The translations under genes and the position numbers were made by a program. Source: a virus. Taken from it: a DNA stretch of 64,000 nt. The DNA is taken from IMG/VR virus record IMGVR_UViG_3300035703_000061, positions 1 through 64,000 of that record; one strand, 5' to 3'. Below the pieces are notes generated by a model. That model searched no databases. It worked only from the letters and a program-made list of their open reading frames with translations, and was not told where the DNA came from. How positions within the stretch are numbered: position 1 is the first letter of the stretch; the number at the start of each line of letters is the position of its first letter. Positions 3,588-21,671 of this stretch are shown here, one piece after another.

Positions 3588-3824
3588 ATGCTTCTCCCGC
3601 CTAAGCCAGTAGATAAGCTTCCATTGCTGGAGCACAATGGGGCAGAAATTCTGCCTATTGTTCATCACGGTTTTTCTAAGCCAAGCAAAGGGCCGCAACC
3701 AGCGGCCCGTACGCTTTATGGAGCCCGTGATAGCAATGGCGAACGCCATTGGCGAGGAAGCCTGCATGAAATCCAACAATTGATTGATAGTGGTTTCGCA
3801 GTGCAGGAGCAAATCAATGCGTGA
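3588..3824 (+). CDS. hypothetical protein
   Basis: 78-aa ORF, first of a run of coupled small + strand genes. Confidence 0.7.
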   Translation: MLLPPKPVDKLPLLEHNGAEILPIVHHGFSKPSKGPQPAARTLYGARDSNGERHWRGSLHEIQQLIDSGFAVQEQINA

Positions 3825-4032
3825 ATTTTGCACCAATCCAAAAGATTGCATGGCTCTTGCTTACGAGCGTGAAGCTGAGCATGAAATGGACGCTCGTGGA
3901 CTAGATGCTGCCTATGCAGAAATTGTCGATAGCTTCCACAAAGAAATGGAAGAATTCGTCCGCAAGTATTGCCCGAAAAAGCTAAATGAATTCGATGACT
4001 TACTAGAAAAAGCTTTCTGGCAGTATCATTGA
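3817..4032 (+). CDS. hypothetical protein
   Basis: ATG overlaps the previous gene end; acidic helical protein. Confidence 0.65.
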   Translation: MREFCTNPKDCMALAYEREAEHEMDARGLDAAYAEIVDSFHKEMEEFVRKYCPKKLNEFDDLLEKAFWQYH

Positions 4033-4035
4033 ACC

Positions 4036-4209
4036 ATGGTTAAATCAGGCGGCGATCTTCAACGTCTTATTGACGATGCCATTCGTCGCCATGAAATCAG
4101 AGTGGCAATAACGAGCGGCGCTTTAGGCGCCGCTCTTCTGCTAGGAACGTTTCACGCAATTGCATTGCTTCGTCATGAATTACACTCCCTCGCCATTGTC
4201 GCAAGCTGA
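4036..4209 (+). CDS. small putative membrane protein (not in ORF track)
   Basis: Translated by hand: MVKSGGDLQRLIDDAIRRHEIRVAITSGALGAALLLGTFHAIALL...; one hydrophobic segment. Confidence 0.55.
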   Translation: MVKSGGDLQRLIDDAIRRHEIRVAITSGALGAALLLGTFHAIALLRHELHSLAIVAS

Positions 4210-7773: not shown

Positions 7774-8035
7774 ATATCTAAACTCCCACCCACTGCTCAA
7801 GCGGTAATCAACGCGGCCATGAAGGATGCTTACGGGCGACCTTCAACTTATTTCTATTCTCGACTGGCTACCGCCTTTCGCGCTGCTGTCGATGAAGTGG
7901 CTCCAGAAAAAAACCATTGAAGACATCGACTACGTGCATCAAAACTACGTTGATGGGTATAGGGATGCTCTTTACGAGATCCTAATTATTGCTAATGAGC
8001 TTGAACTTGTAAGCATTTCCGACACGTTGCATTGA
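7774..8035 (+). pseudogene. disrupted paralogue of the preceding gene
   Basis: ATA in place of ATG, then SKLPPTAQAVINAA...LATAFRAAVDEVAP; similarity continues in another frame after the A7 run at 7907-7913 (...ILIIANELE). Confidence 0.7.
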
Positions 8036-16692: not shown

Positions 16693-17388
16693 ATGGTTCA
16701 GCCCAAGCAGAAAAAGCGCAAAACAGAAGGCTGGGTGTATTTCGTGCAATGGGCGAGCATGCCCTATCACGTCAAAATCGGCTTCTCCACATCGCTAGGA
16801 GACCGCTTTGCATCGTTCCTCACGTCATCGCCGGACACGCTGATCGTCGTCAAGGCCTTTGAGGCGAATCGGGACGATGAGCAGGAGCTGCACGAGCGTT
16901 TTGAAAATTCGCGCCATGCAGGCGAATGGTTCCATCTTTCCATTGCAATCAAGAAATATCTTGAAAGCGAAGCGCCTTGTCAGACGCTGGAGGCGAAGAT
17001 TAAATTTGGCAACAGGAATGAAAGTCGCATTCAATGGACGCCAATGCGACCAGGGCTGGCTCAGTCTCTTGAAGCGCTGCATCAGGAGAAGCGCTTGCCT
17101 CGTTATGTGAAGAATGCTCGCACGTTTGTGCTATGGGCCATTGGGGACATTGAAGCTTGTGATTATTTCCCCACGTCTAATGCCATCATTCATCACGAAG
17201 CAAATCGTGATGCTTATCAGGCGAAAACAATTTATAACCAACTTATTGCATTGGAAGAGGAGGAGATGATTGTGAAAAAGTCTGGTAAAACTTTTGCCTT
17301 GCTTCCGAAGGGAGAAAGTGAGCTTATTAAGACAGAAAAGGAAAATGCGCAGAAACGTAAGAGCGCAAGAAGCTTAAGGCTTGATTAA
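16693..17388 (+). CDS. GIY-YIG (T5orf172/MUG113-like) protein with C-terminal winged-helix-like domain
   Basis: GWVYFVQ...VKIGFS...R...EQELHERF...GEWF. Confidence 0.8.
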   Translation: MVQPKQKKRKTEGWVYFVQWASMPYHVKIGFSTSLGDRFASFLTSSPDTLIVVKAFEANRDDEQELHERFENSRHAGEWFHLSIAIKKYLESEAPCQTLEAKIKFGNRNESRIQWTPMRPGLAQSLEALHQEKRLPRYVKNARTFVLWAIGDIEACDYFPTSNAIIHHEANRDAYQAKTIYNQLIALEEEEMIVKKSGKTFALLPKGESELIKTEKENAQKRKSARSLRLD

Positions 17389-17741: not shown

Positions 17742-19172
17742 ATGAAGCTGAAGGAAAAGGCAAAATGTGAGCCGATTGCTCGTACTGGCAGGGTGCAAGA
17801 TTGGCTTGATGATCCTGAAAGCAGGCTTGCCGTTAGTTGCACTACGTTCGTAGTGGACGATTCAATGGAAGGGCCAGATGGTATTGAAGCATCGTGGCGC
17901 TTTGTGAGCCATGCTCTTCGTAATGCCGCTGGTGCCGCAGTGCATCTTTCTGAACTGCGTCCCAAAGGCGAAGATAATGGCAAGGGGCTAATTGCTAGCG
18001 GGCCAGTAAGCTTTGCAAAGATTTATAGCAAGCTCAACGAGATTCTTCGTCGCGGGGGGAAATTTCGCAATGGCGCCGTCACGCTACATCTTGACTACAC
18101 GCATCCCGATGCCATTGAATTTGTTTCCACTTCTCGTAGTGAACTTCCTTGGGCAAAGCGTTGCTTGAACGTTGACAATAATTTTCTTTCCGCGTCGTCT
18201 CCCGAGCTGATTAATGCCTGTCTTCGTGCCATCTCTTCTGGCGATCTCTGGCTCAACAAAATCCGCTACGACAACAATGGAAAGCGGCTACGTCCAAATG
18301 TTTGCCTTGAAGTATATCTTCCGCATCGTGGCACTTGCCTTCTTCAGCACGTTAATTTGGGCGCATGCACGCTGGACAATATTCAAGGAGCTTTCGCTGA
18401 AGGCATGAGGCAGCTTTGTGAGCTGCATCCTGGCACTGGCGTGGGCGACACTGGTGAATATCTTTCCCCTTCCATTGATAAGCAAGTGGGCCTCGGCATT
18501 CTTGGTCTCGCCAATTTTCTTTCCATCCATGGAATTAGCTACAAAGAATTTGGCGAGGCTCTTGATGCTTTCCTAATGGACGATCCCCACCCTTGGGCTC
18601 ATCATTGGAAAGACACCGTGGCCGGAAAAGCCGTCCACGCTTTGTACCAAGGCATTGACGCTGCTGCTGATATTGCTCGTGAGCATGGCATGGAGCGGGC
18701 ATTCTGCATTGCTCCCACTGCTTCGTGTTCCTATCGCTACCTCGACACTCGTGGCTTTACGACAGCCCCTGAAATTGCTCCTCCCATTGATCGGCTTGTG
18801 GATCGCGACAGCGAAACCATGGGCGTTGAACGCTTTGAATATGGGCCAGTAGAAATTGCAGAGGAAGTGGGCTGGGAAGCTTTCCGTAAAGTTGCTGATG
18901 GCATTTGCGAACTTTTCCACCGCACTGGTTTGTTCCATGGTTATTCAATGAATTGGTGGTCTGATCTTGTTTCTTGTGATGAAAGTTTCATTCAAGAGTG
19001 GCTTGATAGTCCGCAAACTTCTGTTTATTACGCCCTTCAAGTGCAAGCTGGCACTCAAGCTAAAGACGATGTTGGAGTAGAATTAGGGGAGAGCCTGAGC
19101 AGCTTCTTTTCCCTTGAGGAGAGCGAAAGTTGTTCATTGGATGGGGGCTTCTGCAGCTCTTGCGCTGAGTAG
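17742..19172 (+). CDS. nrdA: ribonucleotide reductase large subunit, compact cyanophage type
   Basis: VSC, SELRPKG...ASGP, NVCLEV, IAPTASCS, VYY, C-terminal CSSC; paired with a ferritin-like gene. Confidence 0.92.
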   Translation: MKLKEKAKCEPIARTGRVQDWLDDPESRLAVSCTTFVVDDSMEGPDGIEASWRFVSHALRNAAGAAVHLSELRPKGEDNGKGLIASGPVSFAKIYSKLNEILRRGGKFRNGAVTLHLDYTHPDAIEFVSTSRSELPWAKRCLNVDNNFLSASSPELINACLRAISSGDLWLNKIRYDNNGKRLRPNVCLEVYLPHRGTCLLQHVNLGACTLDNIQGAFAEGMRQLCELHPGTGVGDTGEYLSPSIDKQVGLGILGLANFLSIHGISYKEFGEALDAFLMDDPHPWAHHWKDTVAGKAVHALYQGIDAAADIAREHGMERAFCIAPTASCSYRYLDTRGFTTAPEIAPPIDRLVDRDSETMGVERFEYGPVEIAEEVGWEAFRKVADGICELFHRTGLFHGYSMNWWSDLVSCDESFIQEWLDSPQTSVYYALQVQAGTQAKDDVGVELGESLSSFFSLEESESCSLDGGFCSSCAE

Positions 19173-19240: not shown

Positions 19241-19972
19241 ATGGCAGTTCAAGATTATTTTTCGGCAGTTGCTCGCAAGCGCCCTTGGCAGGCAGTGCCT
19301 GTTACTAAAGGGGAATTTGTCAATGGCTCGGAAGAGACCATTTTTCGTGCATTGGCCATTCGTCATCTTGAGCTTCCCGTGAAGGACATGCTGATGGAAG
19401 GACTGGAGCGCGAGCTTCCCAATACGCCTGGTCTTATTGAAAGCATTCACAGCAACATTCTGGACGAAGAGCGTCATGATCTTGCCTTGAATTATGTCAC
19501 GGCTGCTCATGGCGTTGATGAACAGGCGGAAAAGGAGGCTATGAAGATTCGCCAAGCATGGATTGATCACCCCGCCCATCCCATTGCAAAAGTGGCAGTG
19601 CTTGAGCGGAGCCTGTTCTTTACTATTCTGCCTTTCTTTCGTTTCAATGGAGATAAGGGGCTGCGTACTGTGGCAACGGACATTTCTCGCGACGAGATCT
19701 GTCACGCTTATTGCCACACCAAAATCTGCGAAGAAGCTGGAGAGAAATATGGCGAAAGCTTGAATAAACTGCGCAAGATGACGGCGCTATGGATTTATGA
19801 CAAGCTTGGCGCGTCGTCTAATAAATATCTTGATAAAGATTTTTGGCTGCGCCAGAGTGATGCGTTGTTTATTAATGGCAGGGCTCCTGAGCTGAATGAA
19901 ACCAGAGCCAGCACGGTTCCGGCGTTCTTTGAAACGAATGCGCTAAATTTGCCTGCCTATGGCAAAGCTTGA
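19241..19972 (+). CDS. nrdB: ribonucleotide reductase small (ferritin-like) subunit
   Basis: Metal ligands LELPV, DEERH, LERSLFF, DEICH; adjacent to the alpha subunit. Confidence 0.85.
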   Translation: MAVQDYFSAVARKRPWQAVPVTKGEFVNGSEETIFRALAIRHLELPVKDMLMEGLERELPNTPGLIESIHSNILDEERHDLALNYVTAAHGVDEQAEKEAMKIRQAWIDHPAHPIAKVAVLERSLFFTILPFFRFNGDKGLRTVATDISRDEICHAYCHTKICEEAGEKYGESLNKLRKMTALWIYDKLGASSNKYLDKDFWLRQSDALFINGRAPELNETRASTVPAFFETNALNLPAYGKA

Positions 19973-19979
19973 TGCTATA

Positions 19980-20008
19980 TTGACAAAGTTCCCGCTCTGC
20001 GTTAGCAT
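19980..20008 (+). promoter_or_regulatory. consensus-like sigma70 promoter
   Basis: TTGACA-N17-TAGCAT. Confidence 0.8.
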
Positions 20009-20014
20009 CGGGCA

Positions 20015-20447
20015 GACAGAGCTTAAGCCTCTGAAGCGATTAGCGCTTGTTAATCGCTTCACGCTTAAGCCATTACAGCGGTCGGCGATCACCGTCATGC
20101 GTTCTTCGGATCGCCCGAATGAAAACGAGGCAAATCCCAAAGGTTCGTCCTGTCGGGGGTCGGATGGTAACCGACAAAACCTCCCTCCATTGCTTTGTCA
20201 GTGGAGAGCAGCGCACGGACTGGAAATTTCTGGTCGCCGCGTTTGCGTGATTCGCCCCCAAGCTTAGCTCTCAGACGGAAACCAATTTGTTGGCGCCAGC
20301 AAAATGGTTTCTAGAGATGATGCTCAAACAGGGGGCTCTTGGCCCTGAAGTGTTGGCACACGTTAGGCACCAGCAGCTTCGCTGCGTACGAATGGCCGAA
20401 TGGCCATTCTGAGCCTAGAATTCCGTGGTTCGATTCCCGGCAGCGTC
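20015..20447 (+). ncRNA. putative structured RNA or RNA cluster (~430 nt) ending in a tRNA-like element
   Basis: Begins at the predicted TSS; consecutive closed domains; GGTTCGATTCC T-loop near the 3' end; no credible ORF. Confidence 0.65.
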
Positions 20448-20453
20448 TTTTCC

Positions 20454-20654
20454 ATGGCTCGTTATCGCATCGTCAAACGCGGAGGTTTAGCGAATCCAAC
20501 CAAGGCTTATTACGACGTAGAAGAGCAAGTCTTATGCTTTTGGTTTTGGCAAAATACGTTTACGAAGCTTGAAAGTGCAGAAGCATTAGTAAAAGATCTG
20601 CAAGCGCAAGATAGGCGAATTAAAAGGCAAGTGGTTGGGGAGTATGAAGAATGA
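20454..20654 (+). CDS. hypothetical protein
   Basis: MARYRIVKRG...; coupled to next gene. Confidence 0.7.
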   Translation: MARYRIVKRGGLANPTKAYYDVEEQVLCFWFWQNTFTKLESAEALVKDLQAQDRRIKRQVVGEYEE

Positions 20655-21211
20655 GCGCCTTCGTCATCGCAGATACGCATTTTGGCCACGCCAAAAGCAT
20701 TTCTTTCGTGCGTCCTGATGGCGAATTGCTGCGTCCATTTTCTTCCGTAGAAGAAATGGACGAAACAATGGTGAAACGATGGAATAAGAAAGTAGGCAAG
20801 CGTGATACGATTTACCATCTTGGTGACGTAGTAATTCCTCGTGCAAGTTTGAAAATCCTTGATCGTCTTAATGGACGCAAGATTCTCATTCGCGGGAATC
20901 ATGATATTGGACCATTGAAAGATTTTTCTAAATACTTTGAAGACGTGAGGGGAGCGTTCTTTCATAATGGCGATTCAACCATGAAAGGAGGATTAATTTT
21001 CACCCATATTCCAGTGCATCCAGCATGTCTGTCAGGGCATTATCTGGGCAATGTTCATGGTCATTTGCATTGCCACCAAGTTTTTAATGAAAAAGGAGAA
21101 ATTGATAAGCGTTATTACAATGCTTGTGTGGAAAGGAATGATTTCGCTCCAGTAGCATTTGAAGAGATAAAAGCCTTCTTTAAGGGCCATGACGGAACGC
21201 AGGACTTTTAA
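20651..21211 (+). CDS. calcineurin-like metallophosphoesterase
   Basis: DTH, LGD, GNHD, THIP, HGHLH motifs. Confidence 0.92.
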   Translation: MSAFVIADTHFGHAKSISFVRPDGELLRPFSSVEEMDETMVKRWNKKVGKRDTIYHLGDVVIPRASLKILDRLNGRKILIRGNHDIGPLKDFSKYFEDVRGAFFHNGDSTMKGGLIFTHIPVHPACLSGHYLGNVHGHLHCHQVFNEKGEIDKRYYNACVERNDFAPVAFEEIKAFFKGHDGTQDF

Positions 21212-21413: not shown

Positions 21414-21651
21414 GAAGGCGAGTAAGCATGATCACGAAGCAGACAAAGTGGCGCTCATCCGCACGTTCATCTTTGCATCGTATTTAATCACCAACATTGC
21501 CATCGTTGCTAACGCTTGGCGCCATTGGGAGAAGCAGCCATCTGCTTGCGAACAAGCATTAAAAAGGGGGAGCTTAAGCCCCCAATGCCCTCGGTGGGAT
21601 TTGAACCCACATGAAGAAAATTCTTCTACGGATTTTAAGTCCGTTGCATAA
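21367..21651 (+). CDS. small phage membrane protein
   Basis: WRIWAKALGEKA...EADKVALIRT...RHW; the tail runs antisense into the tRNA. Confidence 0.65.
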   Translation: MSRKNAWRIWAKALGEKASKHDHEADKVALIRTFIFASYLITNIAIVANAWRHWEKQPSACEQALKRGSLSPQCPRWDLNPHEENSSTDFKSVA

Positions 21652-21671
21652 ACCAGTTCTGCTACGAGGGC
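21586..21671 (-). tRNA. tRNA-Leu (anticodon TAA)
   Basis: Acceptor GCCCTCG/CGAGGGC+A, anticodon arm ACGGA-CTTAAAA-TCCGT, long variable arm, GTGGG-TTCAAAT-CCCAC; terminator at 21583-21559. Confidence 0.95.

Follow-up and report, generated by a model that had tools for sequence, protein, structure and literature searches.

What does a phage keep in a long intergenic spacer that carries a folded RNA and whose reading frames are all broken among its relatives? The question is raised by positions 19973-20453 of IMG/VR virus record IMGVR_UViG_3300035703_000061, a 74.5-kb phage genome rated 100% complete by CheckV, of which we analyzed the first 64 kb (henceforth termed the window). The spacer separates a ribonucleotide reductase (RNR) beta gene (19241-19972) from an open reading frame (ORF) of 66 amino acids. 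An earlier note on this DNA had proposed a polycistronic precursor of small RNAs with a tRNA mimic at its 3' end, perhaps serving as decoys for defense proteins, an idea that fits the comparative data presented here although several of its borders and helices were wrong. We find that the spacer is a genuine locus for non-coding RNA, conserved and modular in its make-up. With moderate confidence, we propose that it specifies an array of RNAs that would mimic the antitoxins of the RNase toxin AbiF, and whose 3' end would be cut by RNase P at a tRNA-derived handle.

The toxin AbiF (Pfam Abi_2) belongs to the HEPN RNases, and the abiF RNA encoded upstream of it is a type III antitoxin that binds the toxin, blocks its active site and acts in trans (bioRxiv 10.1101/2025.04.15.648962; PMC12737573; PMC13064643). 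The phage is a freshwater cyanophage: its terminase large subunit shares 76% identity with that of Synechococcus siphovirus S-CBS4 (host Synechococcus sp. CB0101), its RNR beta gene clusters with cyanophage homologues, and the DNA runs in which the stretch occurs were sampled from fresh water, lakes, estuaries and drinking water.

For comparison, about 70 related viral loci were collected with RNR beta protein and T-arm sequence searches. Their equivalent spacers range from 37 to about 2000 nt and are mosaic, with blocks gained or lost as whole units ahead of unchanged downstream genes. Indels of 1 nt and 20 nt among these relatives disrupt every frame of the spacer. An ORF of 102 amino acids at 19959-20267, for instance, is broken by a 1-nt deletion in one relative (L006) and a 20-nt insertion in another (L003), and has no Pfam or PHROG match; protein coding of this interval was thus ruled out and the spacer is not protein-coding. 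Its fold is more stable than that of shuffled sequence on both strands (z = -4.77 on the plus strand, -3.80 on the minus strand). Contigs from four metatranscriptome runs span the region, with neighboring genes equally covered and DNA carry-over possible. A blastn search of 50,697 phage records (cultured phages) returned no match to the region. In the window, ARAGORN made a single call, a tRNA-Leu at 21586-21671, which was also the sole Rfam match both at the gathering threshold and at E <= 0.5. When the spacer was scanned more sensitively against Rfam, two matches below threshold appeared, to the abiF RNA family (RF03085) and to the mascRNA model (RF01684).

The first of these matches (E = 0.2) identifies the element at the center of our reading. 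Its outer helix P1 is formed by 20254-20259 with 20331-20336, and the RNA further retains the AAGC...GCU helix P2 and a CAAAC bulge left single-stranded ahead of the P1 3' strand. In place of the model's 11-nt loop, the window has 58 nt, consisting of UUAG, a rod (about 20264-20321) and AUGAU. This arrangement engages GCCCCC at 20254 with a downstream GGGGGC, and so replaces the GGGGGU/GCCCCC helix previously thought to close an upstream domain; the rod, which had been drawn as a domain of its own, is real and covaries at its tip. In seven relatives the equivalent site holds a canonical 37-nt abiF RNA that scores 46-55 bits (cut-off 37) and lies 3-5 nt before a tRNA-like unit, and about 14 relatives share the long form in which the rod takes the place of the loop. 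Across 14 long-form sequences, 97.9% of positions in the proposed helices are paired with six compensatory pairs (P1 100% and P2 99% paired), the compensatory changes in P1 and P2 being seen in L333. By sequence and pairing, we assign the element as a loop-expanded abiF-class RNA. It is followed by UCUU in the window and by UCACU in most relatives as well as in the host leaders described below. A search for PF07751 (Abi_2) in the complete 74.5-kb genome gave no match at E <= 1, and the phage copy is therefore an orphan.

A second module, termed M1, points in the same direction. It comprises, in order, GAYAGAG, an outer stem of 8 bp (20021-20028 with 20063-20070), a conserved AAGCC-N-CUG, a variable inner hairpin (20033-20060), CACGCU and CCAU. 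In an alignment of 25 distinct sequences (A2), the outer stem is 100% paired with four compensatory pairs, and none of 500 shuffles reaches its score. The inner hairpin corresponds to the long hairpin that the earlier note had placed in its first domain. The GACAG/CUGUC helix said to close that domain does not survive comparison: it depends on an insert (20077-20178, M2) that is missing from most relatives keeping GACAGAG, and so it cannot be conserved. M1 lies directly upstream of Abi_2 ORFs in three picocyanobacterial genomes (G112, G426 and G624), where the blocks GAYAGAG, AAGCC-N-CUG, hairpin, CACGCU and CCAUC follow one another as in the phage copy. The host promoter layout is shared too, with TTGACA-17-CATGCT followed by GAUAGAG. 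A pattern scan of 401 Cyanobacteriota genomes returned a single match, which lies at an Abi_2 gene, and none to the reversed control pattern; further pattern matches in G451 and G465 were set aside as chance, their stems being non-complementary and no Abi_2 lying nearby. At one of the host loci (L340/L354, G624:C2), the Abi_2 ORF behind M1 is in pieces of 135 and 234 amino acids with stops between them, and is probably a pseudogene. Among viruses, M1 also adjoins abiF in more distant contigs (L220, L277) and directly abuts the tRNA-like unit in several relatives. As far as covariation and likeness allow, M1 is a new RNA motif that resembles the leader of one class of picocyanobacterial Abi_2 genes.

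Inspection of host AbiF loci revealed a counterpart for the other module as well. Abi_2 genes occur in 26 of the 401 sampled Cyanobacteriota genomes and, within the picocyanobacterial order, in 12 of 301, all of at least 2.4 Mb. Canonical abiF RNA was found in 4 of 151 Cyanobacteriota genomes, mostly small ones, and the host-type variants emerged only when regions upstream of Abi_2 genes were inspected. Seven picocyanobacterial Abi_2 genes (L344-L349, L352) are preceded by a loop-expanded abiF variant of 29-34 bits, arranged as P1, AGGC, CUCU, a small hairpin, GCCCAAAC, the P1 3' strand and UCACU; like the phage long form, these variants fall below the Rfam cut-off, though they stand beside Abi_2. 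Further cyanobacterial Abi_2 loci follow the same leader plan. A third leader type was seen at the Abi_2 loci L343 and L353, with P1 as CCUGCC/GGCGGG or GGCAGG and a longer internal hairpin; the L343 copy scores 29.1 bits on RF03085. Since M1 and the loop-expanded abiF each precede AbiF genes of this clade, the phage array, judged by likeness, contains a counterpart of each of these two AbiF leader types of the likely host clade.

The array ends in a cloverleaf. A tRNA-like unit of 68-70 nt stands at the 3' end of 29 distinct spacers, and ARAGORN, which places the anticodon at position 30, calls the relatives' units tRNA-Ile(GAU), Met(CAU) or Val. In an alignment of 23 relatives (A1), the 21 pairs are 94.4% paired and nine are compensatory, a score reached by none of 500 shuffles; slid controls were 33-51% paired. 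The window copy has its acceptor at 20341-20347 with 20441-20447 (GGCCCUG/CAGCGUC), a D arm at 20350-20361, an anticodon stem at 20363-20367 with 20414-20418, and a T arm at 20423-20440 with a bulged U. The tRNA-like character of this unit and its T-loop GGUUCGAUUCC had been recognized before, whereas its borders had been set at 20380-20447 in place of 20341-20447. The family is atypical in its 4-bp D stem with a 4-nt loop, a mismatch in the acceptor at 4:69 or 1:72, and the bulged T stem. Its anticodon loop reads C-N-N-A-U-A-G, usually with A at position 33 and with A35, U36 and A37 conserved. One relative (L033), with a CUCAUAG loop, passes the Rfam tRNA cut-off (RF00005, 36.5 bits), which suggests that the unit probably descends from a true tRNA. 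The nucleotide before the acceptor (position -1) is U in 27 of the 29 units.

The window copy differs from its relatives by a 42-nt block in the anticodon loop. It received neither an ARAGORN call nor an Rfam tRNA match at E <= 10, and the 49 nt between its anticodon-stem strands leave no seven-nucleotide loop with U33. The anticodon stem itself is normal and the block sits within its loop, contrary to the view that a canonical anticodon arm is missing. Both CGCUGC, taken earlier as one strand of a CGCUGC/GCAGCG acceptor, and the duplicated CGAAUGGC, taken as a D loop, lie inside this block, which is unique to this genome; the CGCUGC/GCAGCG pairing that it creates is 1.9 kcal/mol more stable than the cloverleaf (-40.1 versus -38.2 kcal/mol). 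Contigs that are 99% identical in the flanks have the block-free form. The block substitutes three loop nucleotides (AAU, CAU or GAU in relatives), and because block-free contigs have three different letters there, it is a replacement at the DNA level and not a product of splicing. A mobile element or intron was considered and rejected, no second copy of the block being present in the window or in IMG/VR. The anticodon loop of L333 is likewise larger, by 3 nt. On the aligned copies, the anticodon loop is unconstrained, and the acceptor and T arm are constrained. An integration site (attP) on a tRNA fragment was also dismissed: the genome has no tyrosine integrase, and the unit covaries as a complete cloverleaf.

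The junction between abiF and tRNA sets phages apart from bacteria. Counts keyed on the exact 22-nt abiF core gave 116 bacterial and 115 viral instances. A T-run follows the core in 111 of the bacterial but 32 of the viral cases, a tRNA starts 13-18 nt after it in none of the bacterial and 21 of the viral cases, and a T-loop-like motif occurs within 125 nt in 1 bacterial and 31 viral cases. In viral contigs the distance from motif to tRNA is constant at 4-9 nt. Abi_2-like ORFs lie near 74 of 120 bacterial abiF loci versus 4 of 119 viral ones, and none was found among ten tested ORFs downstream of viral abiF copies of the terminator type. The viral partners include tRNAs for Gly, Ala, Tyr, Arg and Leu and tRNA-like units of several unrelated designs. 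The organization recurs in cultured phages: abiF is followed after 4 nt by tRNA-Gly in S-CREM1 and after 4 nt by tRNA-Ala in S-SZBM1, and in S-CBS4 (L199, NC_016766) an abiF-like RNA (34.3 bits) precedes a tRNA-like unit at 3684-3816. Unrelated myoviruses and siphoviruses share this junction, and the genes downstream of it differ between phages. The simplest reading is that phages swapped the terminator for a tRNA, after which RNase P would set the 3' end of the RNA and the tRNA may decay into a processing signal.

Two side observations concern such junctions. The hypothetical coding sequence gp005 of S-CBS4 (3700-4041) overlaps both the abiF-like RNA and the tRNA-like unit, which has a perfect 7-bp acceptor and a T arm; this gene is probably miscalled, its 5' end at the very least. 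In another contig (L206, about 7847-7940), an abiF core is followed by sequence resembling the 3' end of tmRNA, with a T arm and an acceptor strand ending in CCACCA.

Taken together, homology, covariation, synteny and distribution across genomes, all of which we observed, lead us to the following model, in which AbiF binding and neutralization are what we infer. The locus would be a phage non-coding RNA operon, transcribed into a precursor whose modules each fold on their own and can be exchanged. M1 and the loop-expanded abiF RNA would imitate two leader types of picocyanobacterial (Synechococcus/Cyanobium-type) AbiF genes. As the phage is without the toxin, these RNAs could act as decoy antitoxins that hold host AbiF in check once the host's own RNA runs low during infection, thereby preventing abortive infection. 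The last module would be a former tRNA kept as a processing handle. A cut by RNase P on its 5' side (20340/20341) would give the abiF-like RNA a native-like 3' tail, and tRNA 3'-processing enzymes would split the array from the downstream mRNA. Indirect pointers to such a cut are the constant 4-9 nt junction, the U at position -1 of 27 of 29 units, and the conservation of the acceptor and T arm. With decoding no longer needed, the anticodon loop would be free to mutate, as by the 42-nt block here.

Several points weigh against this proposal. The window copy of the abiF-like RNA scores below the Rfam gathering cut-off (22.8 versus 37 bits), and the conserved 11-nt loop (CUCUYAACRAU) is gone from it, which makes its binding to AbiF uncertain, and the compensatory changes in the long form derive from few sequences. 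Being near-identical, the three M1 loci of hosts amount to one evolutionary instance, with the toxin ORF split at one of them; an antitoxin role for M1 is a prediction for phage and host alike. AbiF is found in only about 4% of the sampled genomes of the likely host order. Transcription, RNA ends and processing, including RNase P cleavage, are predictions from sequence. M2 and M3, the latter a pair of hairpins upstream of the abiF-like RNA, stand outside the explanation.

How do other explanations fare on the same evidence? The 3' unit could be, or have been, a working phage tRNA (Ile/Met, NAU), the upstream hairpins being leader or spacer of a tRNA operon and the window copy a pseudogene inactivated by the 42-nt block. 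ARAGORN's Ile, Met or Val calls, the relative that passes the Rfam tRNA cut-off with its CUCAUAG loop, the conservation of A35, U36 and A37, and the real tRNAs present in the same array of some relatives are all as this account would have it. We nevertheless regard it as unlikely, given that most units have A33, a 4-nt D loop, an acceptor mismatch, a bulged T stem and variable loop size; it also leaves unexplained both the match of the upstream modules to AbiF leaders and the fact that unrelated phages have abiF, at a fixed 4-5 nt, ahead of tRNAs of many identities. The modules might instead be cis-acting leaders that regulate the 66-amino-acid ORF and the phosphoesterase gene behind it, and not decoys acting in trans. 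RCd22 of C. difficile also lowers abiF transcription in cis (bioRxiv 10.1101/2025.04.15.648962), and the array abuts the next start codon, at 6 nt here and 1-3 nt in relatives. Phage copies, however, are without the T-run terminator that is usual behind bacterial cores, the downstream genes vary among phages carrying the fusion, and modules come and go freely ahead of the same downstream genes, so that cis regulation appears distinctly improbable to us.

Neutral descent would explain why the spacer is such a mosaic, why both key modules carry insertions here and why M2 is without detectable structure: on this account the modules are relics of recombined host abiF loci that lost the toxin gene in a recombination-prone spacer. 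Such relics would not be expected to show compensatory pairing in M1, the abiF-like RNA and the cloverleaf across dozens of distinct phage sequences, a conserved promoter-like element, or an abiF-tRNA junction that recurs in unrelated myoviruses and siphoviruses, and we consider this account very unlikely. Least probable in our estimate is an effector role for the tRNA-like unit itself, which would be a decoy for an anticodon nuclease, possibly the AbiF HEPN RNase, or a substitute that resists it in place of the attacked tRNA, and would be delivered together with the mimics. HEPN RNases commonly cut tRNA anticodon loops, and the loop is altered at positions that anticodon nucleases recognize while the rest of the cloverleaf is kept. 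Yet the partner tRNAs of other phages have many identities and normal loops, and the 42-nt block destroys any resemblance to an anticodon loop. A decoy for anticodon nucleases, one of the earlier note's suggestions, is accordingly disfavored, as abiF in other phages is joined to ordinary tRNAs.

Returning to the antitoxin-mimic array, we tentatively suggest a broader form of it that we hold with less than even confidence: cyanophages, and probably many other phages, would carry multivalent cassettes of decoy antitoxin RNAs that are swappable, each copying the leader or antitoxin RNA of a different AbiF-family toxin of the host clade, and that are matured by host tRNA-processing enzymes because every array would end in a tRNA or in one reduced by decay to an RNase P/Z signal; M3, with its GGAAAUUUCC hairpin, and M2 would then mimic further, undescribed RNA-controlled defenses.

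Features of the spacer and the two genes that follow it (window coordinates)
Feature	Position	Strand	Evidence or remark
Promoter region	19973-20008	+	TGCTATATT and TTGACA-17-TAGCAT
M1, new motif, look-alike of host AbiF leader	20015-20074	+	Covariation, host matches
M2, 102-nt insert of unassigned nature	20077-20178	+	This genome and few near relatives
M3, two hairpins (20185-20206; 20208-20246)	20179-20253	+	Fold z = -2.36
Loop-expanded abiF-class RNA (by sequence and pairing)	20254-20337	+	RF03085 22.8 bits, relatives, covariation
Linker UCUU	20337-20340	+	Proposed RNase P cut 20340/20341
tRNA-derived cloverleaf (probable descent)	20341-20447	+	Alignment A1, 23 relatives
42-nt block in anticodon loop	20370-20411	+	This genome only; two small hairpins
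66-amino-acid ORF, function unassigned	20454-20654	+	Start 6 nt past tRNA-like unit
Metallophosphoesterase gene	20651-21211		After 66-amino-acid ORF

The remaining parts of the spacer are less clear-cut. The strong promoter proposed at its start corresponds to a promoter-like site, TTGACA-17-TAGCAT (19980-20008), with 10 of 12 positions matching. Its strength is less certain: promoter-like sites are not enriched in the spacer (3 observed versus 3.6 expected from shuffles), and in L003 the two hexamers are split by the 20-nt insertion. The element kept in all relatives is the extended -10-like TGCTATATT (19973-19981). Beyond this genome, M2 is confined to four close relatives (L003/L067, L332, L333). 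It folds no better than chance when compared with shuffles (z = -0.38), and was rejected as a structured domain; the GGCGAUC/GAUCGCC helix placed there in the earlier note has uncompensated changes in L003, L332 and L333. The homologue covariation that the same note had called for thus bears out M1, the abiF-like RNA and the cloverleaf, but not this helix. In other relatives the interval between M1 and the downstream modules holds real tRNAs, namely Leu-CAG (L056) and Met (L068). The second hairpin of M3 contains the palindrome CUGGAAAUUUCUGG (20220-20233). A palindromic hairpin of the form CYGGAAAUUUCYRG is present in the equivalent spacer of most of about 27 matching loci, and in L003 it is shifted (3766-3779), standing between the two hexamers of the promoter-like site; the element may represent either a small RNA module able to move or a palindrome to which a protein binds. 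Elsewhere in the window, neither another copy of any module nor an additional Rfam match turned up, and no link emerged to the loci at 8.4 kb and 21.7 kb with which this one had been grouped.

Other small RNAs recur in related settings. A further conserved module of about 45 nt with the 3' end GUUGAUCGCCUCCUGC, absent from the window, occurs in the spacers of L045, L042, L009 and L029, and the minus strand of L333 (3596-3632) has a sub-threshold match to the cyanobacterial small RNA Yfr1 (28.2 bits, cut-off 38). Rfam RNAs lie within or beside phage tRNA genes at gaps of 0-2 nt in S-CREM1 (L318, 1102-1613), L025, L029, L055, L072 and L199 (4385-4441). In S-CREM1, manA lies between tRNA-Leu and tRNA-Asn and wcaG ahead of tRNA-Met. 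Glutamine-II riboswitches adjoin a minus-strand tRNA in L025 (tRNA-Leu) and S-CBS4 (tRNA-Thr); the Rfam scan found no glutamine-II match in the window. Upstream of the spacer, the ORF of the RNR large subunit (17742-19172) encodes 476 amino acids. Its Pfam barrel match covers only the first ~100 model positions, a phrog_367 match covers a separate, later part, and a gene of the T5orf172/MUG113 type (homing-endonuclease-like) lies just upstream at 16693-17388; the large-subunit gene could be shortened or rearranged.

AbiF is the toxin-antitoxin system from which Cas13 arose, and the characterization of its RNA antitoxin dates only from 2025. If our reading is correct, the array would be a second, structurally different case of RNA antitoxin mimicry, would account for the frequency of orphan abiF motifs in viral contigs, and would give degenerate phage tRNA-like genes a role as processing handles; in picocyanobacteria, M1 would represent a new class of RNA associated with AbiF. 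The cultured phages S-CBS4, S-CREM1 and S-SZBM1, on Synechococcus CB0101, are suited to testing these predictions. Full-text searches of a literature library returned no report of a natural phage counter-measure based on abiF RNA, and a 2026 review of AbiF does not mention a phage RNA mimic (PMC13064643).

The closest known relatives of the array are the abiF RNAs themselves (RF03085), such as AbiFr of Prevotellaceae AbiF and RCd22 of C. difficile. With these the phage element shares P1, the AAGC...GCU P2 and the CAAA(C/U) bulge, and the gap between the two is bridged from both sides, by close phage relatives that hold the canonical 37-nt motif at the same site and by host AbiF genes that hold loop-expanded forms. 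The phage copy differs in having no Abi_2 gene adjacent or elsewhere in the genome, a tRNA-like unit instead of a T-run terminator, and a 58-nt rod instead of the 11-nt loop, with a score below the cut-off. The abiF motif of S-CREM1 belongs to the same RNA family, comes from a cyanophage of the same host group and likewise lies 4 nt before a tRNA, within a tRNA array; it was listed as an Rfam hit with no role proposed, its partner is a normal tRNA-Gly, and M1 was not described (PMC9964418).

For the 3' end, the eukaryotic MALAT1-mascRNA/MEN-beta system (RF01684) provides an analogy without homology. There a functional RNA is followed immediately by a tRNA-like cloverleaf whose D arm is reduced, and RNase P cleavage makes the 3' end of the upstream RNA, as we predict here; on this model the window unit (20341-20447) scores 17.8 bits and that of L033 31.1 bits, against a cut-off of 42.5. 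Structured RNAs are also co-transcribed with tRNAs in the tRNA operon of phage T4, where small stable RNAs are released by tRNA-processing enzymes. These T4 RNAs bear no sequence relationship to the phage array, and to our knowledge they have no assigned function and no link to AbiF.

The nearest functional precedent is pseudo-ToxI of Pectobacterium phage PhiTE, through which a phage escapes the ToxIN system by means of an RNA antitoxin mimic (PMC3475682). There the toxin is ToxN and the mimic consists of tandem 36-nt repeats, whereas the toxin here would be the HEPN RNase AbiF, the RNAs are single structured hairpins, and two different putative mimics are combined in one array and joined to a tRNA-like handle. 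As in an antitoxin mimic, the modules resemble leaders of the likely host lineage (M1 and the abiF-like RNA) and the toxin gene is absent from the phage. If the predicted function holds, both systems would deploy a phage RNA copy of a host type III antitoxin against an abortive-infection RNase.

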